Notes: generated by a model not told the origin, from the letters alone. 64,000 nt of DNA from an uncultured virus (IMG/VR IMGVR_UViG_3300030060_005326) (IMGVR_UViG_3300030060_005326), one strand, 5' to 3'; numbered from the stretch's first letter, positions 3,251-60,280 are shown. Made by a program: numbers and translations.

Positions 3251-3255
3251 ATGGT

Positions 3256-15885: not shown

Positions 15886-15910
15886 CTTTTTCTTGAAAAT
15901 CAATTACATT
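15882..15910 (+). promoter_or_regulatory. sigma70-type promoter TTGACT-17-TACATT (leaderless)
   Basis: ATG 15918 is 7 nt after the -10 hexamer. Confidence 0.65.
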
Positions 15911-15917
15911 TCAAGCT

Positions 15918-29800: not shown

Positions 29801-30036
29801 AAGGGTTCAGACAACTAGGATTAACACCGAAGCAAATCCGAGATGACGCTAAGAGCAGAGGCGTAAGTCTAGAAAGACTCGATCAGAATAAGGGAGGGTT
29901 TATGAACCGTCCTTTCCCAACACTTCCGTTGCAGGATAAGATGAAGAAAACCACTGACGGAAAACGGAGGCTGAATACTCTGAAGAAAGTCATCAATGAT
30001 AAATACCCAAGGAAGAAACTAACTATAGACCCATGA
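17836..30036 (+). CDS. giant (4,066 aa) polyvalent internal virion/ejection protein
   Basis: Gly/Ala-rich hydrophobic N-terminal region with EAAEEGIDE motif; zincin HEYIH (22975-22989); ART-like GLGLYFT...GYDGV; HhH-GPD-like VTIDTHAV; helical C-terminal region. Confidence 0.8.
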   Translation: MSDPSETITTPQFKGTPYSVWSSQNVFEDPIESYSKYYDNLRLEYIAAGKYDENTEKSFQFNFRNILTEKELVNEENQEDVIAKLESPFKRNPVEEALFIRDAVTKEDGSINESVEDLMEFDEGELQQVVNYADALQTGGDIPEGIDVEKVDEIVREKKENYLKGLHRQNELSAGIYYTKEGQRRFIGGTLREGQTEADALKEGEKFGVKPTDVFSFRAYRKPLDATSKLKAFEVEQRQQVEQEVSVFLDKQDTLFSREIETYFHALARVYGSKKTWGVGDKTWDNVGEAANWFGRSVNYYWQNAFGNEDAKREVGKDLYYADIQEDFESDIEIAREELLAKLSEKTGLSVEKNGVLDDVINDMVIKLAAYGDGGNFKPTLNYSEDIEDMVQNVSKTKYSGAIVQEELNAKPELFRLALEKAGASAKEIEIADAKRQIQNETLFSSYSDTLMQDDKYSDNWQNALISGKQEGISNNEVLERFVKRYDPSTNWNGMWQSVGHGFSDVAFGVGNLLGYEWGKEGLLENAKNKAHLQQMRTIFGQDYTFGQKALEQVAPLIIDGVIAVGGALLTPFSAGGSALAAGGYFAAKQSATTTARVLLKGLFTSTLKAKAKKDASGKVITETSEEIAKRIQKAGTLKGLTEGQLVNAAKAYNKKLASVLDIKTPLFVSAATRSGSMNYAPIYTTVYDELERKHKDAEGEWTNGYSEERAKQEAHEAGYTGMLSAGAFTGILTVAFGSIGDFATRGTKLGTRLKALGGLENAYLKGMSFKGIKRVGDRLAGQVSSNETFAKMVKNLVSDTIKSAAGGGGLNLLLSAVGEAAEEGIDEFAQSLIQSAITGEEVSFRSRVEGALQGAAMGAFLGGASPAIGQVTRNVLPSVFEDKAAMLETEVAMTQRFVKEATATPELAADFEKLKEVAPQVASEFERIINENTPSGSDDTAREEEEDEEAPATDPVKLEEEARALEDKIAQGAASEERGSENATQQEEADAGKSSRVNPRVDASPAVNTVVEGDLNPSDAKQSVTSNIPSDRAPLTPDQEFKASVAEINRRFQLWKTKTKALKEMPSELSEQRDLLEKEIAQEVLRGDILDPNAHAVALRDAREYRSEQIKEANKPIELTEEDKETLKEFINKGFPVHLIADQLQQLGLDLSRTDTAYLNAATRYLKKQIREIYPTLKAQSGGVKLPRSLDPEGTVQLDEFGNGVFNNDPSGMATLLLNNISVELTQEQVESPAFNQAFRHEEKDGRYFLTDVMIPVRGGLISVKTAPTEVPVHETDYSQIKEKIQRVNVLKETTTVPDGNEIRVESPIPARDGKRRLVGFKTLLKEATDLTLLKKFIVDTAEGSLDKDYVDAAAISMSLDLQEAIYNYIDAVENGTDLPQLGFERSARRSVKFFREMQGNRKAQAIRNLASVIDPESNIHRRPDLFDAEEQAEDLVLHASATSIPPISESKLKAFLDVQFANIAAALDADENLKRAVKDLLNKKVHKGRKITKRYNSMDTAVELVHYLASKAGSDQTAAELELRLRVGTLEAPAFKLGKEVKEALTLLGVTSPALTRRMENDPELYALIEMQLQELSGSTQSLTFGDVKTFYTQLRKGAALYKKRALKDGKSMDQNAKENREQLEGLGLVDGDPESVIAALENILKKGPKQLRILAKLLLNNKDYIRSIDFVIDESHMNFAGGQLINIFGDHSVIINIARSHARGVQDTLVHEYIHAFTRDILTKPAEARTESQNEAVRTLELLMDIAKTEAVKQDRGEFSEATSDVVEFLAYFLTDPEFQKFVTSIVPESEGDFNLFQWIIKTVSKLLGKENQPTFEDAMEGALSLLNRTGVPNPVSKSGYTGQVARSINQSQKELFEISESLGMKERAEIDEKLQQRAAEVVEFAASYIPRELNITIDTESDALAELDSETGMIALNPKRIAAKLATMGANDTDPQRRKHILAVILNKAMGEAAADAMTTDQQYAAVTSAMTETEFVREVLETYPVDEQEAIFAILRGEGGPEAQAAEQFKLTKKAMARHAEMATRGMSSAEQIAFLQLNPNLLTTFAQYLKAYLSKMFYHRSMKDVSPEMRKAVNNMVIEIRAMELGYRPAPSVMTHNPRNPYAVVEQLMQQAVNTNRFVPEESMLDFPDDPENGFYKGYAYGTESPDLESAENSNSSRNRGLGLGLYFTKSQMTSSGRVEGVKYEVPTDRTTSEGNTPEYVYTADIRLQNPLVVDSLFGGAKSTELNTMLLKGIADRYGLTPKEYTAFKAAMDQDGFSDQNFIKLPNELISSIRNLDKNASYYGKITQFIEIVNKFSEADPNKPATGADPTDSMLRLFSEITGYDGVYSRREQMLAVWDKSAVTLKSRTRSQGGSMQTERIASEPPIVLRKADDNELFDLGFRDDLRVGTAKLGTDAVPKETPQNSNIGGVLAEGNDDPKALEYLRTKTIPKQIAQITKALKASSPNGRYIVPKEFTRARNPEKKLQILKDFLADNLVALHNAVDPAIRERSKRWYQGANRIANGLADKYNVTTQQVAGVMATLSPQKDWFLNLAQAEQTLEVFSNYQEYVMGNEEFSKVVEEAVALAKATDTNKKGKTKAQKDKLDEEARNQRAEMIAPLSGKSLAEIIEEGNPDLMGWAIRLISETEFGKGVTNVTPEGEPNGPYMKDDGSPVLNGWGSAGESFRAVSILLDGSAKNISERLGKYHKVRNFYNNIATPFSNEGDVTIDTHAVAAAFLMPYAQKAVPVSHNFGGASSTEKFGMQGTYHIYADAYRQAANTLGIPPYQLQSITWEAIREIYPANSRKNLKYVAERETIFKENDPEAARNEILGRAIPKPLWFGTPDSGLLDRAETLIGSEVQKEAIARRGLLFSGRRSPDGGGVTELGVPPIPIEAPVVNRKTSDDEDIQSQFGQDSRLPESLDPVLMAEQEIGNWLELLDVPLFELGEYEFENKGAIKKFLYKTFVRRADKRVVEFHDINQGFTREARVIVSKFQEEADRVIAEEDKRLSKVTGREEGNIPAILVSRASGATEGTQLTDEQQDLVQDEYQEDVRAARRTKKLEDETGVQYTERVSGLYELAKAKKQERITELREQNRAEQLADRDKALSDLLTLSPKMYGVVLKLRQIQDQLSKKAVEVFGPSMDSTDLNLFFDFNRGIYMTRRYRMFEDVTFAKDVKESDEYADVREQAITYFAKKLSEEHIDEKMEETGMSYRQARQALEEEAVAKDSRFRSDATVMVGEFIDAYSKADTKKRFQIQQREAGQQEVILKDAGFPPNSPLQKIVNDINDKQNIPEPIRQLLGEYGQEEGISNLAYTLSHTASMVSNQAFFNKLKRLGTKNKDKDGKDAPWMVTAAVRDANPQDYPNWVQIEAEGNADVNPVNGMYVPKEVESNLRDLFGNKKDDPLDPFNQRAQVAGYVKDAARWATGMTLALRTLGGIGFYMRNVLGNGLFFGPMQGYYGGIPLMFKEGTGTFFQGGQAAVNKVFGTEYNAEFGKDSLIVKAFKGSREDIDFALVELKSRNVFGDELEVTDIQDLLTGNTKYSDLMKKLKQTGLASNWLQSIKQKTGSVKVPDQYIPLFKEIGIPLGKAGMLPIKGLKKAHDLMLKTGGRVASAADGYFKVGLYNFELETLIDAAKHDIENGNPQGRYGRLLDKNGEPTTAMKNKAADIVKDTAQAYSRAVPAIKQLTRNSISLALAPYVRFAADIPRVYANGVIRTAQEIKDPNPVIRRRGFRRAAGAITTTTISVGLTKGSQMLLFGLDDEEADKAIRSMIPVWMRDSGILFYKTDDGLYSIDLQYLNPFAIVQDPVVRSIEAIVRGKRIDKAILNDLIGLGGEDGIGKKGLIKPYFQEQILAGAVLDAIFKDQDQYDNELILKGESNVLLKKASYIYDRAFEPNTVKALDDSFDAFMSKDRSDDFFKRPIGRLLKEVLPIKPYKVDVNNGYRRFIRNHMEEYNANKSRFAMKMLSPNEMTYGDIQRAYDDFAHVQVYQNNEFYQILKGFRQLGLTPKQIRDDAKSRGVSLERLDQNKGGFMNRPFPTLPLQDKMKKTTDGKRRLNTLKKVINDKYPRKKLTIDP

Positions 30037-40115: not shown

Positions 40116-40143
40116 TTGACTATTACTCTGCTTATGGTAGTGT
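40116..40143 (+). promoter_or_regulatory. promoter TTGACT-16-TAGTGT with TG extension (leaderless)
   Basis: ATG 40151 is 7 nt after the -10 hexamer. Confidence 0.5.
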
Positions 40144-40150
40144 TTTAGCT

Positions 40151-40423
40151 ATGTCAGATAAGGCTAGTCTTCGAAAACGTCTGCTTAAACAAGCTGGAGT
40201 TTCTGGTATGGGCAAAGCAAAGAGGACACCCAATCATAAAACGAAGTCTCACGTAGTAGTAGCCAACTGCAATGGCAAGCCGAAGTTGATACGGTTCGGG
40301 GAGCAGGGGGCGAAGACGAATCAAAACGCTAAACAACGGAAAGCTTTTAAAAGCAGACACCGTAAAAACATCGCCAAAGGACCATGCTCCGCTGCGTATT
40401 GGGCTAATAAAGTTAAGTGGTGA
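40151..40423 (+). CDS. small basic conserved phage protein
   Basis: KRTPNHKTKSHVV...KLIRFGEQGA...FKSRH...SAAYWANKVKW. Confidence 0.8.
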   Translation: MSDKASLRKRLLKQAGVSGMGKAKRTPNHKTKSHVVVANCNGKPKLIRFGEQGAKTNQNAKQRKAFKSRHRKNIAKGPCSAAYWANKVKW

Positions 40424-41230: not shown

Positions 41231-41719
41231 ATGGATAGAGAAAACATTGTCCCCAAAGGATTCAAAAGAATACCCAGAGCTGCTGACAATTACGTGGTCT
41301 CAGGCTCAGGGTTCGTGTTTAATTTAAAAACAGGCAATCTGCTAAAACAGCATTGGAATGGTTACAGCACATACACCGTAATCCGTGACAAAGAAGGAAA
41401 GCAGTTTCGTTTTTGTTACGAGAAGATGGATCGACAGAACTACAAACCTTTAACGAAGGAGTGGGTTTTGGAGAAAGACGGTGCTAAGGTTGTCCCTGAA
41501 TATCCCGACTATGCTGTTTCATCATACGGGGCGGTATACATTATTAACCCTCGTCGAACAGGACCCCGTGCTGGGGAAGTCCACATGATAAGTGAGTTCG
41601 GGAAGCAGGGGCATCCTTATGTTAAGTTGGTAGACCCCAAAACCAAAAAACCCAGAGAAGTAAGGTTAGATAAACTAACCGAACAACTCTGGGGAGAAGA
41701 GAGCACGTATATGCCCTAA
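41231..41719 (+). CDS. protein with two NUMOD4-like repeats, no HNH motif
   Basis: FKRIPRAADNYVVSGSGFVFN and AKVVPEYPDYAVSSYGAVYI resemble NUMOD4 (W+.ipgyegYqVSn.GrV). Confidence 0.6.
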   Translation: MDRENIVPKGFKRIPRAADNYVVSGSGFVFNLKTGNLLKQHWNGYSTYTVIRDKEGKQFRFCYEKMDRQNYKPLTKEWVLEKDGAKVVPEYPDYAVSSYGAVYIINPRRTGPRAGEVHMISEFGKQGHPYVKLVDPKTKKPREVRLDKLTEQLWGEESTYMP

Positions 41720-41967: not shown

Positions 41968-41996
41968 TTGACTAAAATGAAATTGACAAGTATTGT
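41968..41996 (+). promoter_or_regulatory. promoter TTGACT-17-TATTGT for head operon
   Basis: ATG 42006 is 9 nt after the -10 hexamer. Confidence 0.6.
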
Positions 41997-42005
41997 ATTT
42001 CGATA

Positions 42006-44231
42006 ATGAACCGTGATCACCCTTTAGAAATTGATGGTTTAGAATTAGATGCTCTCAATGAGAAGGGTAAACCTGTGGAAACCCGCCTTAAAGATGTAAA
42101 AAGTGCGGTATCTATTTTCAAAACTCTATTCAAAGCAGATGAGAAATCAGCAGTCAACCGAGCAAGAATCGACGCGATGTTTGACGGCGCGGCCCCTTAT
42201 AATCAGGGAAACCTCGTTACGAGCGGTCAACCGCTCAAAACAAACCTCAACTTCGGGGAAGCTCAAAGACTACTCGATATATCTCTATCTTCTTATGTGG
42301 ATCTTTACTCTAGTCTTGAGCGTCTTGTTGATGTAACGGGAACTATGGGGGAGAAGAGTGAGATAGCTCCCCTCGAAGATATTGTTGGTGATGAGTTAAC
42401 GCACTTGATGCGTTCTTGGCCTGAGTTCCATAGTGCATATCTTAGACTATGCACCACGTTCATTAAGCATGGAGTATCTATCGCTTACTTCGATACACCC
42501 GACGATTGGAAGTTTCGGGTTGGGGGATTCACTGACATTCTGATCCCAAGACAAACTCCAGCTAACGAAGACTGCATAGATGTTGCTATTGGTCGGCGGG
42601 AGTATTTGTTACACGAGCTATATGGTTTTATTAAGAACGAAGAAGCTGCTTCGAAGATAGGGTGGAACATTGAGGAAGTTAAAAGAGTCATAAGTAAGAA
42701 TGCTTCGACAAAGGGTCGTGGTCAGTCTAATGCGGGGATAACAGAGTTTGAAGCCCTACAGTCTGAGTTCAAGAACAACGACATCTATTCAGGAATCCAG
42801 AACCCTACAGTATCGGTTCTTCACTACTGGGTAAAAGAGATGGATGGATCTATAAGTCATTACATCTCCTGTGAGAATAATCCCAAAGACTTTCTGTATA
42901 AGAAAGTTTCTAGGTATCAGAATGCTGAACAGGCTTATATAATGTTCACCTATGGTGTAGGTTCTAATGGGACTTATCACTCTATCCGTGGATTAGGGCA
43001 GCGCATCTTCTCTCACATTCAAACTAGCAACCGTTTACGTTGTCAGCAGATTGATGGAGCTATGCTTTCTTCTGCTATTATGATTCAGCCAGAGAACCAG
43101 CGTTCTTTGGATGAGCTACAATTTACATATTATGGGGCATACGCAGTTATGTCTCCGAATGTTAAGATCGTTGAGAAAGCGATCCCGAATCTTGGAACTG
43201 CGGTTCAACCAGCGTTACAAGACATCACGAATCAGTTGCAACTAAACACTGATACCGTGAGCACCTATGGACCTAATCAGAGTTCACCATACAGGAACCA
43301 GATGCAGGTTACTTCTGATATTGATGTTACTAGTAGGTTGTCAGGTGCATCCCTAAACCTGTTTTATGCATCATGGACAAGGCTTCTTAGAGAAGTGGTT
43401 CGTCGTGTTGTGACAACTAAGAAGAGAGACAAATCGGTAAAAGATTTTTTCGAGCGTTGTGCGAAGCGTGGGGTTCCAGAACAATTCATTACATCTCTAG
43501 ATGTTGATCGGACTAAGGCGGTGAGATCTATTGGAAATGGTTCGATGGCAAATAGGATGGTAGCACTTCGCGAGTTGCAGGGTATCAGCGGACAGTTTGA
43601 CGATGTTGGTAGGCGCAACCTTACGAGAGACATTGTATCTACCAGAGTGGGCCATGATTTAGCTGATCGTTACGCCCCTGCTGAAACTGAGAAGCGACCA
43701 TCTATTGATGTTAAGATTGCATTCTTTGAGAATCAGCAATTGCAGCAAGGGCAGAATGTTCCTGTTGTTAGTAACGAGTTGCATGGAACTCATTTGGAGA
43801 TTCACGTTCCTGTTCTTAATCAATTGATCGAAGCGTTGAACACAGGCGAAGCAGATCCAATGCAGGTGTTGCCTATGTTGCAGAGTTTCTATCAGCACAT
43901 TAGCGACACTGCACAAGCCGCAGCGGGAGATCCTGCGTTGGAAGGATTGGTTTCCCAGACTAAGCAAGTTCTCCAGTTTGCTGAAGAAGCGATTAACAAC
44001 ACAATGAAAGCGGTGCAGAAAATGCAGCGTGAGCAAATGGAGCAAGAAGGTGTTGAGGGAGAACAAGCTGAAATGATGCAGCAAGATTCAAAGATGCAGG
44101 AGCATCAGGTAAAAATGCAGATCGCTCAGGAAAAAGCCGAGTTGGACATGGCTATTAAGCAGAAAAAACATGAACAAGAAATGGCTATACGAGACGCTAA
44201 AGCTGCCCTAGAGTTCAGAGAGAATTCTTAA
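42006..44231 (+). CDS. portal protein
   Basis: 741 aa; first gene of head operon; helical, with Gln/Glu-rich C-terminal tail like P22-type portals. Confidence 0.75.
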   Translation: MNRDHPLEIDGLELDALNEKGKPVETRLKDVKSAVSIFKTLFKADEKSAVNRARIDAMFDGAAPYNQGNLVTSGQPLKTNLNFGEAQRLLDISLSSYVDLYSSLERLVDVTGTMGEKSEIAPLEDIVGDELTHLMRSWPEFHSAYLRLCTTFIKHGVSIAYFDTPDDWKFRVGGFTDILIPRQTPANEDCIDVAIGRREYLLHELYGFIKNEEAASKIGWNIEEVKRVISKNASTKGRGQSNAGITEFEALQSEFKNNDIYSGIQNPTVSVLHYWVKEMDGSISHYISCENNPKDFLYKKVSRYQNAEQAYIMFTYGVGSNGTYHSIRGLGQRIFSHIQTSNRLRCQQIDGAMLSSAIMIQPENQRSLDELQFTYYGAYAVMSPNVKIVEKAIPNLGTAVQPALQDITNQLQLNTDTVSTYGPNQSSPYRNQMQVTSDIDVTSRLSGASLNLFYASWTRLLREVVRRVVTTKKRDKSVKDFFERCAKRGVPEQFITSLDVDRTKAVRSIGNGSMANRMVALRELQGISGQFDDVGRRNLTRDIVSTRVGHDLADRYAPAETEKRPSIDVKIAFFENQQLQQGQNVPVVSNELHGTHLEIHVPVLNQLIEALNTGEADPMQVLPMLQSFYQHISDTAQAAAGDPALEGLVSQTKQVLQFAEEAINNTMKAVQKMQREQMEQEGVEGEQAEMMQQDSKMQEHQVKMQIAQEKAELDMAIKQKKHEQEMAIRDAKAALEFRENS

Positions 44232-44532: not shown

Positions 44533-45714
44533 ATGAGTGAAGAAACTGCTGTAGAAGCAACCGACCCTGTAGATTCTCTGCCAGAGGAGCAGATGGATTT
44601 TAGCACGGCACTAGATGCCGCATTTGCCCAACTAGATAATCCTGACCCAGAACCAGAGCCAGAGGCGGAGCCAGAACAAGAGGCAGAAGAGACCCCTGAA
44701 GTAGAAGAGTCTAGTGAAGAGGAAGCAACGGAAGAAGTTGAAGAGACTACAGATGCTAAGGAGGAAGATAAGTCCTTTGACCCGACAGATGATCTTGATT
44801 CCGAAGTCGGGGATGACTGGACCCCGAAAGCTGCATCCCGATTCAAGAAGCTCAAAGCTGAGTTGAAAGCATCTACAGAGGAACTTGAGTCGCTGCGTCA
44901 GAAAATGGCGGAGAACGAGAGCAAAGTAAAAGAGCTAAGTGGGGAGGTAGAGTCTACTGATATTGAGAGTTTGCAGAAAAAGTTGGCTGAGTATGAGCAG
45001 GAGAAAATGTTCACGGACCTTGAGGCTACAGAAGCTTACAAGGTAGCTGTTACTGAGCCATTGGATAATCTTATCGATACTACTCGTCAGATTGCGGAGA
45101 AGTATGGGGTTGATGCAGATGATTTGGTGGATGCTCTAGCTATTCAAGAACCTACTGAACAGGACGAGAAAATCTCTGATCTTTTGATTGAAGCTACTGA
45201 TAGGGATAAAGCTAGAATTTACAGAGTCATTGAAGACGTAGTCCCGATTCTTGAGAAAAGGGCCGCGATGATGGAGAACTCTTCGGAAGCTTTGAATGAA
45301 GCAAAAGCTGCTAAGGAGAGAGAAGTGGAGGTTCAAGCTGCTGAAAGAGCTAAGGAAAGACAAAATGCTGCACGGAATGTGGTATCTAGAGTTCAAAAGA
45401 AGCTACCTTTCCTTAGCGGGATAGACGGATTAGATATGGGAGCTATTGAGAAAAAAGCTGCGGAAGTAGACCCGTCAGTTATCCATCCTGTTGATTACAC
45501 TTATAATTCTGTTAGTGCCCAACTTTTACCTGCTATCATAAAAGAATATGTAGGCATGAGAAAAGAGAACGAGGTCCTTACAGATAGACTAGCTGAATAC
45601 GAAGGTGCAGAACCTAATATGTCTGGGTCTACCCCCAACACGACCCCAGCAGAGGATAAGAGGTCGTTTGAGGAGCGTATTGAGGCAGCATTTGCGACCG
45701 CTGCTAGCGGATAG
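44533..45714 (+). CDS. capsid scaffolding protein
   Basis: Very acidic N-terminus (EPEPEAEPEQ), coiled-coil body, immediately before major capsid gene. Confidence 0.75.
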   Translation: MSEETAVEATDPVDSLPEEQMDFSTALDAAFAQLDNPDPEPEPEAEPEQEAEETPEVEESSEEEATEEVEETTDAKEEDKSFDPTDDLDSEVGDDWTPKAASRFKKLKAELKASTEELESLRQKMAENESKVKELSGEVESTDIESLQKKLAEYEQEKMFTDLEATEAYKVAVTEPLDNLIDTTRQIAEKYGVDADDLVDALAIQEPTEQDEKISDLLIEATDRDKARIYRVIEDVVPILEKRAAMMENSSEALNEAKAAKEREVEVQAAERAKERQNAARNVVSRVQKKLPFLSGIDGLDMGAIEKKAAEVDPSVIHPVDYTYNSVSAQLLPAIIKEYVGMRKENEVLTDRLAEYEGAEPNMSGSTPNTTPAEDKRSFEERIEAAFATAASG

Positions 45715-45723
45715 AATGTTGCA

Positions 45724-45752
45724 TTGACAACTAGCTATAATTAAATTACTCT
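45724..45752 (+). promoter_or_regulatory. promoter TTGACA-17-TACTCT for major capsid gene
   Basis: Consensus -35; predicts a ~195-nt 5' leader before ATG 45955. Confidence 0.7.
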
Positions 45753-45755
45753 AAG

Positions 45756-45923
45756 TTTATAGATCCAGTTTGGTTGCTCTAGCCACAAATAGTTCTACAG
45801 AACTTGGTCTATAAAGACAGAGCTGTGTCTCGTCGAACAGTCCGTTAGGTTGCTCTAACCTTTAACTAGTTCTATCGCGGTCTGCATCAGATAATTTCGC
45901 AAGTCCCACTTTTTCGGGGGCTT
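45756..45923 (+). ncRNA. candidate structured cis-regulatory RNA (tandem motif plus downstream hairpin) in capsid leader
   Basis: Two units of outer stem + hairpin with GCUCU loop + UAGUUCUA, with compensatory changes (UGGUU/AGCCA vs AGGUU/AACCU). Confidence 0.6.
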
Positions 45924-45954
45924 ATTTCAATTAACACAATTACTATTATTTATT

Positions 45955-47277
45955 ATGGCTAGAGATATGGGAGCAAGTGACTTCACTACAGGAAGCACCA
46001 CTGCAATTAATACAATCCTCGCAGAGGAAGCAAACCGCATTGGAGCTGATGTTCATCAGCGCATGATGCATACTTCCCCTTGGATTGACCTTGTTAAAAA
46101 ATCCGCCTTCCCTGAAGGAATGGGTTATCAACTAAACACACTCATTTATGACCGCAGTCTTCCGACTTCGGACGTTAATGGTGATAATGTCGGACTTAGC
46201 TGGAATAGCGTAGCCGCACTACAGACAGGTTCTAATACCTTCAGCACTTCTGCGTTGGATCAGCCTTTGGTTGATACTGCTGACAATGTGCAGGGAGCTA
46301 ACGGATCTGGAAGTGACGCACGTAACTACGTTAACTTCGGTAAGCAGATCAAGAAATACAGCATTGAGCGTGCGATCATTGAGTCTCCACGCATCAATGT
46401 TGATGACTTGCGTTATGCAGCTCATCGTCAGGAGCAGCTTCGTGCTGTCCTTGATGCACTCGCAGAATCTACCCGCCACTCATGGGCTGAGAGATACCGC
46501 GACGAGTATGACCGTCTTGTAGACAACACTGTTATTTGTCGTGCTGACGCGACTAAGACACAGTTCCTTACTGATAACGAGGGAGTAACTACTGATGCAC
46601 TTGGTGCAGCAGGTGGTGATCTTGATGGTGGTTCCGCCACCAAAGTTAAGAACCAGATTTCAAATGCTGTTCTTGATAAGATCTACTTCCAGATGATTCG
46701 TAAGGGAGCATCTAACGATGCTTATGGTCGTGAGAATGGTCGCCCAGTGTTCGCACTTGTTTGCTCTTCTGAGGCATCCAACACTATCATCAAAGAGTCT
46801 GGGTTCCGTGATGACATTCGTTACAACAACGCAATGGTCGGAGAGCTTGTTAAGCCACTTGGTGTTGAGCGTTCGTTCCGTGGGTTCTACCACTTGATCG
46901 ACGATCTTGCACCTCGTTACACTGACGGTTCTGACGGAGCTATTACTCGTGTTGAGCCTTACACTGTTACTAACGGAATCGCTTCTGTTAACAGTTCTTA
47001 TGACAGTGCTGAGTATGAGGTCGCTTACGTTCTTCACCCATCCGTGTATGAGTCCCAGATTCCTGCACCGTTCGGTGGTTCTAACGGATTGACCTTCAAC
47101 CCAGTCGATTATTCTGGCGAGTTCAAATGGACGAACATCTTATCTGAATCAACGAATCCAGATGGGACAATCGGTTTCTTCCGTGGAATCCTCGCTGCTG
47201 CTTCCAAGCCAATTAAGACGGATCTTGGATACGCAGTTATCTTCAAGCGTGATGACACTACTGCGTCTCTCGTTTAA
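45955..47277 (+). CDS. major capsid protein
   Basis: 440 aa after scaffold; strongly biased codons (CGT, GGT, TTC); own promoter and terminator. Confidence 0.8.
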   Translation: MARDMGASDFTTGSTTAINTILAEEANRIGADVHQRMMHTSPWIDLVKKSAFPEGMGYQLNTLIYDRSLPTSDVNGDNVGLSWNSVAALQTGSNTFSTSALDQPLVDTADNVQGANGSGSDARNYVNFGKQIKKYSIERAIIESPRINVDDLRYAAHRQEQLRAVLDALAESTRHSWAERYRDEYDRLVDNTVICRADATKTQFLTDNEGVTTDALGAAGGDLDGGSATKVKNQISNAVLDKIYFQMIRKGASNDAYGRENGRPVFALVCSSEASNTIIKESGFRDDIRYNNAMVGELVKPLGVERSFRGFYHLIDDLAPRYTDGSDGAITRVEPYTVTNGIASVNSSYDSAEYEVAYVLHPSVYESQIPAPFGGSNGLTFNPVDYSGEFKWTNILSESTNPDGTIGFFRGILAAASKPIKTDLGYAVIFKRDDTTASLV

Positions 47278-47299: not shown

Positions 47300-47341
47300 A
47301 GCGGGGGTAGCGGTCTACGGATCTCTGCCCCCGCTTTACTT
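47300..47341 (+). terminator. intrinsic terminator after capsid gene
   Basis: AGCGGGGGTAG.GGTC-TACG-GATC.CTGCCCCCGCT then TTACTT; C(UACG)G tetraloop. Confidence 0.8.
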
Positions 47342-49312: not shown

Positions 49313-49750
49313 ATGGCGAATATTCAACTACAACGAGGACAACAACAGGCAATTGAAGTTACGTTCAAATTGGCGAATGGCAATATTCCTAACTTCAATT
49401 CTGTAGATAATAATAACAACAGTGCGGGAACTTTTGATGCCGAGTTAGTTCTAAGGAAGAAGAGAGGAGATAATTTTCAAGGACAGATTATTGATATTCT
49501 TAGACATGGAGCAACAGCAGGGACACCAGTTTCTGAAGCAGATGGTCGCATAGATTTTATTGGGACTGGCGGATCAGCTTCCCAATCAGTTAGTGGACAT
49601 AACATTGTTCTTAACTGGAACACTGCTCAAGCAACTCTCTTACCTAACGAAGCTGTAACTGTTTTTGGAGATCTCAAAGTGACAAAGTCATCTGAAGTTG
49701 TGCATCACATACGACTAGCATTTGATATTTTACCCGAAATTACAGCATAA
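49313..49750 (+). CDS. putative fibre-attachment protein (BppU N-terminal-like)
   Basis: IQLQRGQ..IEVTFK...AELVLRK...GRIDF...IVLNWNTAQAT...FGDLKV; TAATG-coupled to the fibre gene. Confidence 0.5.
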   Translation: MANIQLQRGQQQAIEVTFKLANGNIPNFNSVDNNNNSAGTFDAELVLRKKRGDNFQGQIIDILRHGATAGTPVSEADGRIDFIGTGGSASQSVSGHNIVLNWNTAQATLLPNEAVTVFGDLKVTKSSEVVHHIRLAFDILPEITA

Positions 49751-52700
49751 TGGCTAACGAAACAGTAACAGTAAATCAGTCCACTAACTCTGTAACAGTA
49801 ACCCAATCGACAAATAACGCTTCGGTTGTTGCTGTTAACCCAAGAGCTGGACTGGGGTCAGGTGGAACTGTCCAAGGAAACTTAGACATAACACAAAATC
49901 TAGACGTTGACGGAACTCTAGAAACTGATGCCTTAACCATTAATGGTGTTTCCATTACGGAAACAATTCAAGATGTCGTAGGTGCGATGGTCGGTAGTAA
50001 TACCGAAACAGGAATAGCTGTATCTTACGATGATTCTGATGGGACGTTAGATTTTGTAGTTTCCTCGCAGACAGATAACAATTTCACAAACGCATTAAAA
50101 TCTAAGCTAGATGCCTTAGACGCAAATGCGGCCGATGATCAAACCGCAGCAGAAATCAGAGCACTTGTAGAGTCCGCGACTGATTCGAATGTCTTTACAG
50201 ACGCAGATCATTCAAAACTTAACGCAATCGAAGCTAGTGCTGATGTAACCGATACAACAAATGTTGTAGCTGCCCTTACTGCGGGGACAAACATTTCAAT
50301 TGCTGCTGACGGAACTATCACCGCTACAGATACGAACACACAGCTTTCGAGCGAGCAAGTTCAAGACATTATTGGGGCAATGCTTTCAGGTAATACTGTA
50401 AGCGGGATTACAGTTACTTATCAAGATGCTGACGGGACAATTGATTTTGCTGTATCTTCTCAGACTGAAAATGATTTTACCACTACACTTAAAAACAAGT
50501 TAGATGGAATAGAAGCGGGTGCTACTGCTGATCAAACAGCATCTGAGATTAGAACTCTTGTAGAGTCCGCAACTGATTCGAATGTTTTTACAGATGCAGA
50601 TCACTCGAAACTAAACGCGATTGAAGCTAGTGCGGATGTTACCGACACGGCAAATGTTGTAGCGGCGCTTACTGCGGGGACGAATATTTCGATAGCTGCT
50701 GACGGAACTATCACTTCCACAGATACGAACACGCAACTTTCTAGCGAGCAAGTTCAAGACATTGTGGGCGCGATGGTTGCAAGTAATACCGAGAGTGGGA
50801 TTACTGTAGAGTATCAAGACAATGATGGGACTCTTGATTTCACTGTAGCTTCTCAAACGGATGAAAATTTTACAACTGCCGATCACTCCAAACTAGATGG
50901 GATATCCGCTGGTGCAGATGTAACTCCTTCTTGGGTACCTAGCTCAGATCCTAGTTATGCTACTCAGAGTTACGTAACTACTCAAATAGCTAATATAGTT
51001 GACTCTGCCCCCGCAGCTTTAGACACGCTAAACGAATTAGCTGCTGCGTTAGGTGATGATGCAAACTTTTCTACAACAGTAACTAATAGTATTGCAACTA
51101 AACTCCCTCTATCGGGGGGAACGATGACTGGCAATATTGTTATGTCAGGCACGGAGACTGTCGATGGTAGGGATCTTTCTGTAGATGGGGCTAAATTAGA
51201 TGGGATAGAAGCTAGTGCTACAGCAGACCAAACTGCTGCTGAGATTCGCACACTTGTTGAATCTGCTTCTGATTCAAACGTATTTACAGACGCTGATCAC
51301 TCTAAGCTAAACGCGATTGAAGCTAGTGCAGATGTAACCGATACAACAAATGTTGTAGCTGCACTTAGTGCGGGAACGAATATTTCAATCTCTGCTGGTG
51401 GAACTATTTCATCTACAGATACGAATACCCAACTTTCGGACGAGCAAGTTCAAGACATCGTAGGCGCGATGGTCGCAAGTAATACCGAGAGTGGTATTAC
51501 AGTTACCTACCAAGATGCTGACGGGACTCTCGACTTCAGTGTTGCTTCTCAAACAGATGAAAACTTTACAACTGCTGACCACGATAAGTTAGATGGCATA
51601 GAAGCGGGTGCTACAGCAGACCAAACTGCTGCTGAGATTCGCACACTTGTTGAATCTGCTTCTGATTCAAACGNNNNNNNNNNATGTAACCGACACAACA
51701 AATGTTGTAGCTGCACTTAGTGCGGGAACGAATATCTCAATCTCTGCTGGTGGAACTATTTCATCTACAGATACGAACACTCAGCTTTCAGACGAGCAAG
51801 TTCAAGACATCGTAGGTGCGATGGTCGCAAGTAATACCGAGAGTGGGATTACTGTTTCTTACGATGACACGGATGGGACGCTCGACTTTACTGTCGCTTC
51901 TCAAACGGATGAAAACTTTACAACTGCTGATCATAACAAACTAGATGCTATTGAGGCTGGGGCTACAGCAGATCAAACCGCAGCAGAGATAAGAACCCTT
52001 ATTGGGGACGCAACCGATTCGAATGTATTTACAGATGCCGACCACTCTAAGCTAGATGGCATAGCTGCTAACGCAGATGTTACTCTCAGTAAAATTTCTG
52101 CTGGGTCAAATATATCTATTTCCGCTGGTGGAACTATTTCTGCCACAGATACGAACACTCAGCTTTCAGACGAGCAAGTCCAAGACATCGTGGGCGCGAT
52201 GGTCGCAAGTAATACCGAGAGTGGGATTACTGTTTCTTACGATGACTCTGATGGGACTCTCGACTTCAGTGTTGCTTCTCAAACAGATGAAAACTTTACA
52301 ACTGCTGATCACGATAAGTTAGATGGCATAGAAGCTAATGCTACAGCAGACCAAACTGCTTCTGAGATTAGAACGCTCGTAGAATCTGCTTCCGACTCAA
52401 ATGTCTTTACAGATGCAGATCACTCGAAACTAAACGCGATTGAAGCTAGTGCTGATGTAACCGACACAACAAATGTTGTAGCTGCACTTAGTGCGGGAAC
52501 GAATATTTCAATCTCCGCAGGTGGAACTATATCCGCTACAGACACGAACACTCAGCTTTCTAGCGAGCAAGTTCAAGACATTGTGGGCGCGATGGTTGCA
52601 AGTAATACCGAGAGTGGAATTACTGTTTCTTACGATGACACTGACGGGACTCTCGACTTTAGTGTTGCTTCTCAAACAGATGAAAACTTTACAACTGCCG

Positions 52701-55700
52701 ATCACTCTAAGTTGGATGGCATTTCTGCGGGAGCAGATGTTACACCGTCTTGGGTTCCTAGTTCTGATCCTAGTTATGCAACTCAAAGTTATGTAACTAC
52801 CCAGATAGCTAATGTGGTTGATTCAGCACCCGCCGCACTAGATACGCTAAATGAATTAGCGGCAGCTTTAGGGGATGACGCAAACTTTTCTACCACTGTA
52901 ACAAACAGTATAGCAGCAAAGCTACCTTTGTCTGGTGGCACGATGACTGGCAACATTGTAATGTCAGGCACGGAGACAGTTGACGGAAGAGATCTTTCTG
53001 TCGATGGAGCGAAGCTCGACGGAATCGAAGCTAGTGCTGATGTAACCGATACAACAAATGTTGTAGCTGCACTTAGTGCGGGAACGAATATCTCAATCTC
53101 CGCAGGTGGAACTATCTCCGCTACAGACACGAACACTCAGCTTTCGGACGAGCAGGTCCAAGACATCGTAGGTGCGATGGTAGCTAGTAACTCCGAGAGT
53201 GGTATTACAGTTACTTACCAAGATGGCGATGGGACTCTCGACTTTACTGTCGCTTCTCAAACGGATGAAAACTTTACAACTGCTGATCATTCTAAACTAG
53301 ACGGTATAGAAGCTGGAGCTACTGCTGATCAAACTGCTTCTGAGATTAGAACTCTCGTAGAATCTGCTTCTGACTCGAATGTCTTTACCGATGCTGATCA
53401 CTCGAAACTAAACGCGATTGAAGCTAGTGCTGATGTAACTGATACGACAAATGTTGTAGCAGCACTTAGTGCGGGAACGAATATCTCAATCTCTGCTGGT
53501 GGAACTATTTCATCTACAGATACGAACACACAGCTTTCAGACGAGCAAGTTCAAGACATCGTAGGTGCGATGGTAGCTAGTAACTCTGAGAGTGGGATTA
53601 CAGTTACTTACCAAGATGCTGACGGGACTCTCGACTTCAGTGTCGCTTCTCAAACAGATGAAAACTTTACAACTGCTGATCATTCTAAACTAGACGGTAT
53701 AGAAGCTGGAGCTACCGCAGACCAATCAGCTAGTGAGATTCGCACACTTGTTGAATCTGCTTCTGATTCGAATGTCTTTACCGATGCTGATCACTCTAAG
53801 CTAAACGCGATTGAAGCTAGTGCTGATGTAACTGATACGACAAATGTTGTAGCTGCCCTTACTGCGGGAACGAATATCTCAATATCCGCAGGAGGAACTA
53901 TCACCGCTACTGATACGAATACCCAACTTTCGGACGAGCAGGTTCAAGACATCGTAGGTGCGATGGTAGCTAGTAACTCTGAGAGTGGGATTACCGTTAC
54001 TTACCAAGATGGAGATGGGACTCTCGATTTCAGTGTTGCTTCGCAGACTGACAATAACTTTACCAATGCTGACCACTCTAAGTTAGACGGTATAGAAGCT
54101 AGTGCCGATGTTACTGACGCTACCAACGTAGCTGCCGCTGGAGCGTTGATGCTAAATACTGGTGGGGACATTGTCGGAGATGTGGACATAGATGGAGAGT
54201 TCTCTATTGATGGGACTCACAAAGCTACGTTCGGTCAGGGGCATAGTATTGCGGCAAATGGTAGTCAGCTAAACATTATCGGATTTGATAATAGCACTAA
54301 AATAAACCTGATTACTCAGGGGAGTGCGGGAGGAAAAGCAGTAAACTTTCAGACGGGATCTCACTCTAGTAGTTTCGCCACCGTTGCCTCAATAGACGAT
54401 TCTGGAAACTTTACGTTAGACGGAACTGTAGATGGCAGGGACGTAGCCGCTGACGGAACTAAACTCGACGGTATCGAAGCTAGTGCTGATGTAACCGACA
54501 CAACAAATGTTGTAGCTGCACTTAGTGCGGGAACGAATATCTCAATCTCCGCAGGGGGAACCATATCCGCTACAGATACGAACACACAGCTTTCAGACGA
54601 GCAAGTTCAAGACATCGTAGGCGCGATGGTAGCTAGTAACTCTGAGAGTGGGATTACAGTTACTTACCAAGATGGAGACGGGACTCTCGACTTCAGTGTT
54701 GCTTCCCAGACTGACAACAATTTTACAAATGCCGATCACTCTAAGTTGGATGGCATTTCCGCTGGTGCAGATGTAACTCCTTCTTGGGTTCCGTCCAGCG
54801 ATCCTAGCTACGCTACTCAATCATACGTTGGGACGCAAATTAGCAACTTAGTTGATTCTGCTCCTGCTGCTCTTGATACACTCAATGAGTTAGCAGCAGC
54901 TTTGGGAGATGACGCTAACTTCTCAACTACAATCACCAACAGCATTGCTACCAAGCTGCCTCTGGCTGGTGGAACCATGTCAGGAAACCTTGATATGGAC
55001 GGCAACTGGGTAACAAATGTCGCTCGTCTTCAAGGAAACGAGAATCTATTCATAAACGCAGGTAACGGGGAGATTGGGATCTATATCGATCAAGATGAGC
55101 AAGTAGCTCTATACTATAATGGAGTGAAGAAATTCGAGACCGCTTCAAACGGAATCGATGTAGCGGGTTCTATAACTATTTCTGGAACCGTTGACGGCAG
55201 GGACGTAGCCACTGACGGAACCAAACTAGACGGCATTGAATCTAGTGCTGATGTAACTGACACGACAAATGTTGTAGCTGCCCTAACTGCTGGCACGAAT
55301 ATCTCAATCTCTGCGGGTGGAACTATTTCAGCTACAGATACGAATACACAGCTTTCTAACGAGCAAGTCCAAGACATCGTAGGTGCGATGGTAGCTAGTA
55401 ACTCCGAGAGTGGAATTACTGTTACTTACCAAGATGGAGATGGGACTCTCGACTTCAGTGTCGCTTCTCAAACAGATGAAAACTTTACAACTGCTGATCA
55501 CTCTAAGCTAGATGGTATTGAAGCCAGTGCTGATGTAACTGATACGGCAAATGTTGTAGCTGCACTTAGTGCGGGGTCGAATATCTCAATCTCTGCTGGT
55601 GGAACTATATCCGCTACAGATACGAACACTCAACTTTCGAACGAGCAAGTCCAAGATATCGTGGGTAACATGGTATCGAGTAACTCTGAGAGTGGAATTA

Positions 55701-58700
55701 CAGTTACTTATCAAGATGGAGATGGGACTCTCGACTTCAGTGTCGCTTCCCAGACTGACAACAATTTTACAAATGCTGATCACTCTAAGTTGGACGGTAT
55801 TGAAAGTGGAGCTACCGCAGACCAATCAGCTTCTGAGATTAGAACTCTCGTAGAATCCGCTTCTGACTCCAATGTATTCACTGACGCTGACCATTCTAAG
55901 CTGAACGCGATTGAAGCTAGTGCAGATGTAACAGATACGACAAATGTTGTAGCTGCCCTAACTGCGGGAACGAATATCTCAATCTCTGCGGGTGGAACTA
56001 TTTCATCTACAGATACGAATACACAGCTTTCAGACGAGCAAGTTCAAGACATCGTAGGCGCGATGGTAGCTAGTAACTCCGAAAGTGGGATTACAGTTAC
56101 TTACCAAGATGGAGACGGGACTCTCGACTTCAGTGTTGCTTCGCAGACAGATAATAATTTTACAAATGCCGATCACTCTAAGCTAGATGGTATTGAAAGC
56201 GGAGCTACCGCAGACCAATCAGCTTCTGAGATTAGAACTCTCGTAGAATCTGCTTCTGATTCAAACGTATTTACAGACGCTGATCACTCTAAGCTAAACG
56301 CGATTGAAGCTAGTGCTGATGTAACGGATACAACAAATGTTGTAGCTGCCCTTACTGCGGGAACGAATATCTCAATCTCTGCTGGTGGAACTATATCCGC
56401 TACAGATACGAACACAACCTACTCTGCTGGATCAGGATTAGATTTATCTAGCACTACGTTTAGTCACACTGATACATCTTCACAGTCATCTGTTAACAAC
56501 AGTAATGGCTCGGTCATTCAAGATGTTACTCTTGATACTTATGGTCACGTAACTGGGTTAAGTAGCTATAACTTAGACGGGCGTTATTACACAGAGAGTG
56601 AGATCCAGACGTTTATGGATCACTCTTACATCTCTAGCGAAGGTGCGAGTGATCTTGCTGTTGGTTGGTATACCATTGCGACTAATACGGGTAATAGAGC
56701 TTCAGCTAGATTTGGTATTTGGGATACAGATAGTAGTCGCCACCAAAGTGTAACTTTTTATGCAGCACATAAATATGGAACTGCCGCAGCCGATACGATT
56801 ACTGTTATTGATGAATCCCACTACAATCTTAGTGTTTTCCGTTACATAAGAATTAAAGCGCATGGAACTTATGATGGTGCTGCCCTTCAGGTATATATCG
56901 ATGATTCCTCCAATTCTGTTAATGTAGCTATTCTTGGGGATAATTTCCAATCTGATAGTTGGGTTATACAAGATTGGGTTCCAGACGCTACCACCCCAGA
57001 CAATGTAGATAACTACGGATCTTTCACTGAAAGTTCTAGGATTGATTTAGATCAGATTGCACAAGGTGGTTTTGCAACGACTGGTCCAATCTACGCTGAC
57101 GGTGACACAACCCAATACAAAGTTCTTACTACTAATGATAATGTAAACGCAGACACCGTTGACGGACACCACGCATCTGCTTTCCAGTCTGTCCTTACTG
57201 CTGGATCTAACATATCAATTTCTGGGAGCACTATCTCCGCTACAGATACGAATACTCAGCTTTCTAACGAGCAAGTCCAAGACATCGTAGGTGGGATGGT
57301 TTCAAGTAATACTGAAAGTGGTATTACTGTTACTTATCAAGACGGAGATGGAACTCTTGACTTCAGCGTTGCTTCGCAGACAGATAACAATTTTACAGAT
57401 GCCGATCACTCTAAGTTGGATGGCATTTCCTCTGGTGCAGACGTTACACCTTCTTGGGTTCCATCTAGTGATCCTAGTTATGCAACTCAGAGCTATGTTA
57501 ATACTCAAGTCTCAAACCTAGTTGATTCAGCACCCGCTGCACTAGACACACTGAATGAGTTAGCTGCTGCGATTAATGATGATGCGAGTTTCTCTACTAC
57601 AATCACCAATAGCATTGCAGCCAAGCAAGACACTCTAAGTGGTTCAAATAGATTGAACGCTCAGTTTGTTGGAGACGGCAGCGTATCAAACACAGAGCTT
57701 GATTACCTCGACGGAGCTACTTCAAACATCCAGAACCAGCTCAACCTCAAGCTTGGTCTGTCGGGTGGAACGATGACGGGCGACATAGCGATGGGCAGTA
57801 ACGATATTACTAGCTCTGGCAATATTACTTGCACGGATCTAAAGCCCACTGGGGATATAGATTTGAACAATGGTAACTTTATTACTTTCTATGGGGACGA
57901 TTCAGATTATCACGGGATAGGCGCGATACCCCCTACTGGGGGAACTGGGACAAATGATGACATACGGATAAACAGTTACGCTAGTGTTTGCATAAACCTA
58001 GACTCCAACAGTAATAATTCTTCGGGCGCTGATTTCATTATTGGTAGGCATGGAGCAGCAACTGGTAATGCTACTAGCAGCACTTTATTTAAAGTTGATG
58101 GGGAGACCGCAGAAGTAACTCTGGGTGGTTCTCTTAACGCTGGTAGTTATGCTATAACTAATGTTGGGAATGTAGATGGCCGTGATGTCTCTGCTGACGG
58201 GACAAAGCTCGACGGAATCGAAGCAAGTGCGGATGTAACGGATACAACAAATGTTGTAGCTGCCCTTACTGCGGGAACGAATATCTCAATCTCTGCTGGT
58301 GGAACTATATCCGCTACTGATACGAACACTCAGCTTTCGGACGAGCAAGTTCAAGACATCGTAGGCGCGATGGTTGCGAGTAACTCTGAGAGTGGGATTA
58401 CAGTTACTTACCAAGATGGGGATGGGACTCTCGACTTCAGTGTCGCTTCCCAGACTGACAACAATTTTACAAATGCCGATCACTCTAAGTTGGACGGTAT
58501 TGAAAGCGGAGCTACAGCAGATCAAACAGCTAGTGAGATTCGCACACTTGTTGAATCTGCTTCTGACTCGAATGTCTTTACCGATGCTGATCACTCTAAG
58601 CTAAACGCGATTGAAGCTAGTGCTGATGTAACTGACACAACAAATGTCGTAGCTGCACTTACTGCTGGAAGTAATATTGCAATAGCTGGTGATGGAACTA

Positions 58701-60280
58701 TATCCGCTACAAATACGAACACTCAGCTTTCGAACGAGCAAGTCCAAGATATCGTGGGCAACATGGTATCGAGTAACTCTGAGAGTGGGATTACCGTTAC
58801 TTACCAAGATGGAGATGGGACTCTCGATTTCAGTGTTGCTTCGCAGACTGACAATAACTTTACCAATGCTGACCACTCTAAGTTAGATGGTATTGAAAGT
58901 GGAGCTACCGCAGATCAGTCCGCTAGTGAGATAAGAACTCTTGTTGGATCTGCGTCCGACTCAAATGTTTTCACCGATGCAGACCATTCTAAATTAGATG
59001 GGATTGAAGCAAGTGCTGATGTAACTGACACAACAAATGTCGTAGCTGCACTTACTGCTGGAAGTAATATTGCAATAGCTGGTGATGGAACTATATCCGC
59101 TACCGATACGAACACTCAGCTTTCTAGCGAGCAAGTTCAAGACATCGTAGGCGCGATGGTAGCTAGTAACTCTGAGAGTGGGATTACAGTTACTTACCAA
59201 GATGGGGATGGGACTCTCGATTTCAGTGTTGCTTCGCAGACTGACAATAACTTTACCGATTCTGACCACTCTAAGTTAGACGGCATTGAAAGCGGAGCGA
59301 CAGCAGATCAAACAGCTAGTGAGATTCTTACCGCGATCAAGACCGTTGACGGCAGTAGCTCTGGATTAGATGCAGATAAACTAGATGGGTATCATGCTTC
59401 TACATTTTATAAATCAGGGAGCAACGCTTCTTTAGCTGATGTCAGTATCACTGACGCGAACAGTAAGATTGATGTCGATGGCACTTATGGCGGGGACTAT
59501 GGATCATTTGGAATCGGGACAACAAACTTAACAAATGGTCATCACAGAATCTTCGCCAAAGCTGCTGACCATATGTATTTTGCTGCTGCCTCTAGCAAAG
59601 GATTCAGGTTTAGACCTAACGGTGGCAGTAACAGTAGTGGCGTAGAAAGTTGTATAACTAGCGGGGGTAATTTCGCAATAGGAACCACAACTACTTCAAG
59701 TAAACTTGGGGTTAACGGAGGAGTGGCTATTGGTGCTAGTTACACTGGGTCAACCGCTCCTACGAATGGAATGCTTATCCAAGGCAATGTAGGTATAGGA
59801 ACCAGTTCTGTATCAGGTTACTACGCACTACAAGTTAATGGTAACATTCAAGGAACATATAAGAGTTTTGTAATTGATCACCCGACCAAAGAGAACAAGC
59901 AGCTTGTCCATGCTTCTCTTGAGGGGCCAGAGATCGGAGTATATTTCCGAGGCAAGAGTAATGTTGACACAATCACAATGCCTGATTACTGGGATGGATT
60001 AGTGGACAAAGATAGCATGACTGTAGAACTTACTGCAATTGGTTCTAATCAGTGCTTATTCGTATCTAGTATGGAATCTGATGGAACCGTAGTTGTAGGT
60101 TCGAATACTGATGAGCCTTTGAATTATTACTACGTTGTCTACGGAGAAAGAAAAGATGTTGATAAACTTGTCATAGAGGTTGATGTTGAAGAAGATGAAG
60201 AGGAAGAGTCCATAGCAGATAGCCCTGCTGAAGTGGACACTGATTCAGTTGAATACATCGATTCTTTAGCTAATGCTTAA
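49750..60280 (+). CDS. giant repeat-built tail fibre (~3,500 aa), interrupted by assembly gap
   Basis: ORFs 49750..51720 and 51608..60280 carry the same repeats either side of N10 (51674-51683); LDTLNELAAALGDD and KLDGIE fibre motifs; C-terminal KSFVIDHP...HASLEGPE chaperone-like domain. Confidence 0.85.
51674..51683. other. scaffold gap (10 N)
   Basis: Ns inside a repeat module. Confidence 1.

Follow-up and report, generated by a model that had tools for sequence, protein, structure and literature searches.

Comparison of capsid-gene leaders from an uncultured virus (IMGVR_UViG_3300030060_005326) and its relatives has shown a predicted RNA unit in which a variable clamp stem, P1, encloses an H-type pseudoknot, with two tandem copies of this unit in the first ~130 nt of the capsid mRNA. 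The window referred to throughout is the whole stretch of viral DNA that was analyzed, 64,000 nt in length. The element is a real and well-supported RNA motif that is apparently undescribed; its general kind, the structured cis-acting leader, is known, and its tandem clamped-pseudoknot form is unusual. The reading that we favor, tentatively and with a probability of about 0.4, is that the element serves the capsid gene as a specific post-transcriptional operator, with a conserved factor docking on it, and is built like the leader of T4 gene 32. In this candidate role it would probably set the amount of capsid protein that is made.

Promoters and terminators are the usual explanation of how tailed phages make so much more capsid protein than other head proteins, and control of a capsid gene at the RNA level is, to our knowledge, hardly documented in a DNA phage. 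The strong features of the present case are found together: a compact covarying fold, near-invariant loop letters, specificity for one gene and presence in a large group of uncultured phages. The unit is a defined RNA of about 55 nt that can be synthesized and used in binding, probing and nuclease assays without a cultured host. If the partner of the RNA is a head protein, the element would provide autogenous control of capsid synthesis; should the RNA act without a partner, its fold would be a new one among RNA stabilizers.

The initial annotation of this region did not recognize the element as a described Rfam family, and searches of Rfam 15 agree: the whole window gave no match at the gathering thresholds, and positions 45600-46100 searched at E-values up to 10 gave only a chance match to Xist_exon1 inside the upstream ORF. 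Searches of the literature found no description of the element. A catalogue from 2023 contains 8,495 unnamed candidate structured RNAs from IMG/VR, and its text describes five candidates that are typically located upstream of a major capsid protein domain (PMC10690425). The capsid-leader motif may be among the unnamed entries.

The two pseudoknotted units of the capsid leader

Unit 1 (45756-45815, + strand) is composed of P1 (45756-70/45801-15), S1 (45771-74/45782-85), L1 (UGCU, 45775-78), S2 (45779-81/45790-92), an A-rich L3 (45786-89) and the tail UUCUA (45793-97), and scores 52.5 bits with the covariance model of the unit. Unit 2 (45838-45884, + strand) has the same parts, namely P1 (45838-45/45877-84, with one U.U mismatch), S1 (45847-50/45858-61), L1 (45851-54), S2 (45855-57/45867-69), L3 (45862-66) and the tail UUCUA (45870-74), and scores 40.8 bits. 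The initial annotation had described tandem units of one architecture, and every coordinate that it gave for them was confirmed in the sequence. The units share a conserved 13-mer (45772-84 in unit 1 and 45848-60 in unit 2) and a conserved 8-mer (45790-97 and 45867-74, respectively); the exact 13-mer occurs at only those two places in the 64 kb window, and the covariance model also matches the window only there.

Among relatives the pseudoknot is made of an S1 of 3-5 bp, an L1 that ends in an invariant GCU, an S2 of 3-4 bp and a near-invariant UUCUA after L3. The third loop is A-rich except in a sister clade, where it instead contains an inserted hairpin, often with a GAAA loop. The UUCUA tail is replaced by UUCAG in some first units and by UUCCA, UUCGA or UUUUA in single lineages. 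This picture modifies the proposal of an inner hairpin followed by a free 8-mer: the inner hairpin has S1 in common with the pseudoknot and differs from it by one pair, but the 8-mer is not free, as its first three letters pair with the 3' half of the loop to form S2. The loop and the 8-mer had also been called invariant, which is accurate for the GCU; the tail is only near-invariant and the start of the 8-mer covaries as part of S2.

The whole leader has an unremarkable MFE z-score of -1.69, and the case therefore rests on comparison with relatives. The flanks of 128 distinct relatives' units are unrelated to each other in sequence, yet each flank pairs with its own partner. Cognate P1 duplexes have an energy of -9.3 kcal/mol compared with -4.9 kcal/mol for swapped partners (Mann-Whitney p 1.7e-41, a value that is not exact as the units are related), and five or more flank pairs are formed in 120 of the 128 units compared with 51% of 631 swapped controls. 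In a covariance model (R1) built on a MAFFT alignment the outer stems were out of register, with 43% of the cells paired, as the distance from core to stem is not constant (spacers of 0-2 nt on the 5' side and 0-6 nt on the 3' side), and swapped-partner controls and a register-matched subset were therefore used. In this subset of 14 units compensatory changes were found at seven of seven P1 pairs and 97% of the cells were paired, compared with 15-53% when the partner was slid; the subset was selected for register by a rule that requires pairing, so the percentage paired is partly a result of construction and the compensatory changes are not. RNAalifold applied to eight full leaders recovered only the invariant hairpins. 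The swapped-partner, flank-pair and register-matched tests show that the outer stems, described at first as sharing no sequence, covary.

The second stem of the pseudoknot is supported by the 3-4 nt that follow the invariant GCU, which pair across clades with the 3-4 nt that precede UUCUA. The covarying variants of S2 include CUA/UAG (the type in the window), CCGU/ACGG, UCG/CGA, CGGA/UCCG and UUGC/GCAA. In 26 representative units S2 was 100% paired with compensatory changes at three of three pairs and S1 was 95% paired, compared with 23-47% in slid controls; the coordinates of these units were computed by a rule that requires pairing and were not hand-picked, and the percentages are again partly set by construction. 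The same rule applied to anchor pairs was passed by 106 of 370 pairs in leaders and by 3 of 601 in the coding sequence of the capsid gene, a control which, like the compensatory changes, is not set by construction. Of 81 leaders, 74 contained one or more fitting units, and the seven in which none was found are L039, L040 (truncated), L063, L066-L068 and L076. The first letter of L1 tracks the adjacent S2 pair, being U with A-U in 15 units and C with G-C in seven, with four exceptions, a pattern that fits either a major-groove base triple or an alternative pair closing the hairpin.

The strand of the folded molecule can be read from wobble pairs. In 80 distinct helices, chosen as strand-symmetric Watson-Crick helices, the enclosed mismatches were G.T in 25 cases and A.C in five, and the U.G pair of S1 was retained in 59 of 65 distinct rows. 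Therefore, the folded molecule is the + strand, which is the sense strand of the capsid gene. A comparison of the strands by duplex energy was uninformative, with 58 units better on the + strand, 67 better on the - strand and three ties. Taken with the stem tests, these results bear out the central proposal of a structured + strand RNA in the capsid leader that is tandem, has covarying stems and presents near-invariant unpaired letters.

Two further hairpins are present in the leader. The middle hairpin (45815-45830, + strand) has a 5-bp stem and a 6-nt loop that holds GAGC, and it is clade-specific. The motif G(A/G)GC occurs in 16 of 34 distinct inter-unit spacers, compared with 5.6 in shuffles, and the hairpin is missing from lineages with spacers of 25-30 nt. 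A kissing loop between this hairpin and the GCUCU loops of the units had been suggested; as a general feature it was rejected, since the hairpin is not general among relatives, and part of its target letters are used by S2. The terminal GC-rich hairpin (45901-45923, + strand, stem 45901-07/45917-23) is located 31 nt before the start codon, has an energy of -8.6 kcal/mol and is followed by 8 nt that include four U residues. The relatives with tandem units also have a stable hairpin, placed 15-45 nt upstream of the start codon, but five or more U residues in the 8 nt after the strongest hairpin were found in only 8 of 50 distinct leaders, so that of the hairpin with a weak U-tract seen at first the hairpin is conserved and the U-tract is not. 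A terminator scan did not call the hairpin at 45901-23. A conserved attenuator based on an intrinsic terminator, another early suggestion, is therefore not supported. In the clade with single units (L006, L010, L017 and related loci), ~60-130 nt before the capsid start, the loop of the last hairpin (GCUUC) could pair with a conserved GAAGC, and this complementarity suggests a further pseudoknot or two mutually exclusive folds near the initiation region.

Two other interpretations were rejected. A leader peptide encoded by a 14-codon frame through unit 1 was dismissed because the linker between the conserved blocks (3-9 nt) varies by non-multiples of three. Likenesses to segments of rRNA, tRNA or boxA were set aside as they extend over only 4-6 letters.

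The capsid gene, its promoter and its relatives

The gene downstream of the leader (45955-47277, + strand) encodes a 440-aa protein that gave no sequence match in Pfam, PHROG or the PDB, the last of which was searched with a capsid profile. Its identification as the major capsid protein gene, already made in the initial annotation, is confirmed by an AlphaFold model of moderate confidence (pLDDT 66.6, pTM 0.69), which shows an HK97 fold when compared by Foldseek. The best matches were the capsid proteins of N4, Moo19 and B2 (E about 1e-10, probability 1.00); at least 291 PDB matches had E <= 0.001, and among the matches listed 36 of 36 were HK97-fold phage capsids or encapsulin shells. On the predicted structure, the nearest solved relatives of the protein are the capsids of the N4 family. 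The transcription unit is short, consisting of the capsid gene, a strong hairpin and an ORF of 154 aa, after which come a minus-strand ORF and a new promoter-like site at 48657. The hairpin after the capsid stop codon (47300-47335, + strand), read from the sequence, has an 8-bp G/C-rich stem and a long loop and is followed by the next gene at 47351. It lacks a U-tract, was not called by a terminator scan, and could be a 3' stabilizer or a partial stop before the 154-aa ORF.

Several other features of the window were recorded. The 4066-aa ORF at 17836-30036 (+) has DUF7178 as its sole family match and gave no match in a PDB sequence search; from its size and context and the N4-like capsid fold, our guess is that it may correspond to the N4 virion RNA polymerase. 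A 393-nt (131-aa) repeat forms arrays with 82-89% identity over 50136-59325 (+) in tail-fiber-like ORFs (49750-51720 and 51608-60280, the latter of 2890 aa). A 162-aa ORF with a NUMOD4 motif (41231-41719, +), just before an ORF of portal size, is probably a homing-endonuclease-like gene.

The whole element lies in the 240-nt gap between the capsid gene and a 393-aa ORF (44533-45714, + strand). This upstream ORF gave no PHROG match and only sub-threshold Pfam matches of the coiled-coil type, and it is putatively assigned as a scaffolding protein gene from its position and these weak hits. A low-complexity repeat within it (44641-44690, +) draws matches from numerous sequencing-run contigs that are unrelated to each other and have loose ends on either side.

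Transcription of the capsid gene is predicted to begin at a sigma-70-type promoter (45724-45752, + strand) with a perfect -35 hexamer at 45724-29, a spacer of 17 nt and a TAnnnT -10 hexamer (TACTCT) at 45747-52. The coordinates of this promoter, TTGACA-17-TACTCT, were as first annotated, and the arrangement is kept in relatives, with the strict pattern in 24 of 41 distinct leaders and near variants in most of the others. A consensus scan of the window did not call this promoter because the -10 hexamer matches TATAAT at only three of six positions. The predicted transcript start is near 45759, which gives a leader of ~195 nt, and no second promoter for the capsid gene was found between 45753 and 45955. 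In the leaders of relatives the end of the -10 hexamer lies 14-23 nt before the core of unit 1, which puts unit 1 right at the 5' end of the transcript; wherever a promoter can be recognized, the unit starts 7-16 nt from the predicted transcript start. In a clade with single units (L006, L008, L012 and their relatives) the TTGACA of the capsid promoter is flanked on either side by the arms of a 14-nt inverted repeat, which could be an upstream terminator or an operator.

The length of this leader sets it apart from the other promoters, which had been described as near-leaderless. Promoter-like sites of the form TTGAC(A/T)-16/17-TAnnnT were indeed located at 3222-3256, 15882-15918, 40116-40151 and 41968-42006 (+) and at 41956-41920 (-), each with the ATG start codon 6-10 nt after the -10 hexamer. 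Shine-Dalgarno motifs are generally missing from the genes of the window, and it seems that the mRNAs of this phage are mostly leaderless or near-leaderless. In front of the capsid start codon there is an A/U-rich stretch of 31 nt without a Shine-Dalgarno motif (45924-45954, + strand), which is unpaired in the centroid fold and is separated from unit 2 by the hairpin at 45901-23 and ~25 nt. The words UUAAC or CUUAA are frequent in this unstructured stretch in the window (45924-45954) and in seven relatives' leaders (L001, L005, L006, L010, L032, L045 and L047), with five consecutive CUUAA before the capsid ATG in L032; we take these words to resemble the UUAAA repeats of the T4 gene 32 leader and of the T7 gene 10 enhancer.

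In IMG/VR 80 loci with a capsid homolog (33-78% identity) were collected. The conserved block and the 8-mer lie 100-250 nt before the capsid start, mostly twice, in loci with 49-78% capsid identity; a single diverged unit is present in a sister clade (capsid ~55% identical) and in more distant clades (33-44%). According to the initial annotation, leaders that kept the 8-mers without covariation of the stems would point to a DNA-binding site; most of the collected leaders instead contain the motif with covarying stems. Over the range in which capsid identity drops to 33-50% and the stems drift, the GCU is unchanged and the UUCUA nearly so. A loose pattern scan of IMG/VR returned at least 118 loci, and the proportions that follow hold among the matches listed: the full block was present in 60 of 118 loci, with a capsid homolog just downstream in 56 of the 60 (the other four being loci of only 448-627 nt), and none of the 58 partial, chance-level matches had a capsid gene downstream.

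A search of representative genomes of 185,579 prokaryote species found the exact motif on five contigs only, all five tandem and capsid-linked, in MAGs of four unrelated lineages, and these look like binned phage contigs. In all five relatives that are 98-100% complete exactly two model matches per genome were found, both in the capsid leader, and the element is always downstream of the promoter and on the sense strand of the capsid gene. Within the genomes compared, the element is specific to the capsid gene and present as a tandem set once per genome. Searches of INPHARED with the region (blastn) and the capsid protein (tblastn) returned no match in cultured phages, and near-identical DNA is present in public marine metagenomes of several studies. 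The carriers are a large uncultured group of marine and freshwater phages with a capsid fold related to that of N4. Contigs from RNA-labeled libraries run from the leader's 3' half on into the capsid ORF, which is weak evidence of expression because DNA carry-over is possible and transcript ends cannot be read from contigs; long stretches of the upstream gene and unit 1 have no cover in these contigs, and no evidential weight is given to those gaps.

Candidate roles of the element

In the proposed operator, both units would present identical unpaired letters to a conserved trans-acting factor. The fixed GCU, UUCUA and A-rich loop, in the face of divergence of the capsid, call for an equally conserved recognizer or for tertiary contacts within the fold. 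The factor would most plausibly be a dimeric or multimeric protein, which is suggested by the two like units; the thrS operator is a parallel for like units with a dimeric or multimeric partner. The factor could be one of the phage head proteins, of which the capsid protein is the best-conserved candidate, or else a host factor that is conserved universally. Once bound, it would control how the mRNA is translated from its start codon, which lacks a Shine-Dalgarno motif and lies 80 nt downstream, how long the mRNA lasts, or both, and the operator would act without a conserved intrinsic terminator. On the other side, invariant unpaired letters can also serve the tertiary contacts of a fold that needs no factor, and a direct steric effect on initiation is not obvious because the units are 80-190 nt from the start codon with a stable hairpin between. 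The spacers between the units vary (25 to ~50 nt), and therefore a rigid dimer site is not suggested.

A different possibility, which we consider somewhat unlikely, is that the clamped pseudoknots are a factor-free 5' stabilizer that protects the late capsid mRNA from 5'-end-dependent decay by RNase E/RppH or an RNase J-type exonuclease, with the hairpin after the capsid stop codon protecting the 3' end. Stabilizing 5' leaders are known for the mRNAs of T4 gene 32 and ompA. The start of the units 7-16 nt from the predicted transcript start, the structure that brackets the capsid mRNA at both ends and the restriction of the units to the capsid gene are all consistent with such a role. However, a simple stabilizer has no need of invariant letters, and the GCU and UUCUA are fixed at 33-50% capsid identity. 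The strongest form of this idea involves exonuclease-resistant folds like the tandem xrRNAs of flaviviruses, and such tandem xrRNAs, which contain pseudoknots, are reported to stop bacterial RNase J1 in vitro, acting as a general mechanical obstacle (PMC5760640). The units would then be protein-independent, exonuclease-resistant pseudoknots, the phage counterpart of the flavivirus tandem xrRNAs acting against a host 5'-3' exoribonuclease, which by analogy is conceivable and which we rate as unlikely. If true, it would explain the tandem copies, the invariant letters (as tertiary contacts) and the restriction to the most-needed mRNA, and an xrRNA-like device would be on record for the first time from a virus that infects prokaryotes. 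Against it, P1 encloses the knot, so that a ring with the 5' end passing through it, as in xrRNAs, is not obvious, and the Rfam xrRNA families gave no matches.

Size and topology (~45-50 nt, H-type, A-rich L3 and an optional hairpin in L3) also bring to mind small pseudoknot aptamers such as those of preQ1-I/II and SAM-II/V, and each unit could be an aptamer whose small-molecule ligand signals the condition of the infected cell, with two units sharpening the capsid response. The conserved letters are in loops and junctions while the stems covary, and one position fits two alternative pairings, both in keeping with a tandem riboswitch. Riboswitch classes normally also precede cellular genes, whereas the exact motif was found in the 185,579 species' representative genomes only on five capsid-linked, phage-like contigs. 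There is no evident expression platform, as there is no conserved terminator, no Shine-Dalgarno sequence to sequester and the start codon is 80 nt away, and the Rfam riboswitch models gave no match at E-values up to 10. With neither a match to the preQ1-I/II or SAM-II/V models nor a Shine-Dalgarno or terminator platform over the 3' strand of the knot, a riboswitch is quite improbable.

Antitermination, in which the nascent units would bind RNA polymerase in the manner of HK022 put, or Nus-type factors in the manner of nut and rrn boxA, and so cause read-through, would account for tandem structured units directly after the promoter and for hairpins before the start codon and past the capsid gene. 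A conserved partner (RNA polymerase or NusB/S10) would explain the invariant letters, and the G(C/U)UCU of the units resembles the core of boxA, a likeness of just five letters. HK022 put, lambda nut and rrn boxA-boxB are cis-acting RNA signals just downstream of the promoter that serve long operons with terminators and are present at each operon. Here, the transcription unit is short (the capsid gene and the 154-aa ORF, then a minus-strand ORF and the promoter-like site at 48657), only 8 of 50 leaders have a terminator-like tail after their hairpin and the element is missing at the other late promoters of the window, so antitermination is very unlikely.

It is more improbable still that the leader is a separate small RNA of ~165 nt that ends at the 45901-23 hairpin and works as a trans-acting decoy whose two sites would bind a host RNA-binding protein. 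Decoys with repeated sites are known (CsrB/RsmZ), and the leader would suit one in its strong promoter, its final hairpin and the identical letters that its repeated units expose, but the capsid gene has no other promoter between 45753 and 45955, the contigs from RNA-labeled libraries continue from the leader into the ORF and the hairpin is not a terminator in most relatives. A role at the DNA level, as operator boxes, origin iterons or a packaging signal, would draw on the invariant 13-mer and 8-mer direct repeats and is the least likely reading of all, as the flanking and internal stems show compensatory changes, the wobble pairs are strand-specific (G.T 25, A.C 5) and the repeats are always downstream of the promoter on the capsid sense strand.

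Comparison with known systems

The antitermination signals HK022 put, lambda nut and rrn boxA-boxB have in common with the capsid-leader element that a structured RNA is located just downstream of a promoter, but the element serves a short capsid unit, occurs once per genome and is not accompanied by a conserved terminator. The preQ1-I, preQ1-II, SAM-II and SAM-V riboswitches are alike in size, in H-type topology, in their A-rich third loop and in their conserved loops and covarying stems, and preQ1-II also has a hairpin embedded in the third loop as is found in the sister clade here. In contrast to these small pseudoknot riboswitches, the element is found only before phage capsid genes and has no Shine-Dalgarno or terminator platform.

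The flavivirus xrRNA1 and xrRNA2 are likewise two tandem compact pseudoknotted units with conserved letters, and the fold alone blocks 5'-3' exonucleases including bacterial RNase J1 (PMC5760640). The xrRNAs come from RNA viruses, where these three-way junctions of ~70 nt lie in the 3' UTR and pass their 5' end through a ring; the units described here belong to a DNA phage, are ~50-60 nt in length and lie in a 5' leader, each with a clamp stem that closes it.

The operator of gene 32 in T4 and RB69 is the system that the favored reading takes as its model. There is no sequence likeness between T4 gene 32 and the capsid-leader element, and gene 32 encodes a single-strand binding protein where the gene here encodes a capsid protein. 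The T4 operator has one pseudoknot of ~28 nt that abuts the initiation region, whereas the capsid leader has two, each of them clamped, and then another hairpin, with the start codon 80 nt away. In the T4 leader, a 5' pseudoknot nucleates repressor binding that then spreads over an unstructured, A/U-rich initiation region (PMC535899). The gene 32 operators of T4 and RB69 combine an H-type pseudoknot at the 5' end of the leader with a less structured, A/U-rich initiation stretch after it. The capsid leader also has an A/U-rich stretch before its start codon, but with a stable hairpin and ~25 nt between this stretch and unit 2. Like the capsid-leader element, the gene 32 operators are specific to one gene. 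An H-type pseudoknot at the 5' end of the leader is what was found here, with compensatory changes in S1 and S2 and units that begin 7-16 nt from the predicted transcript start.
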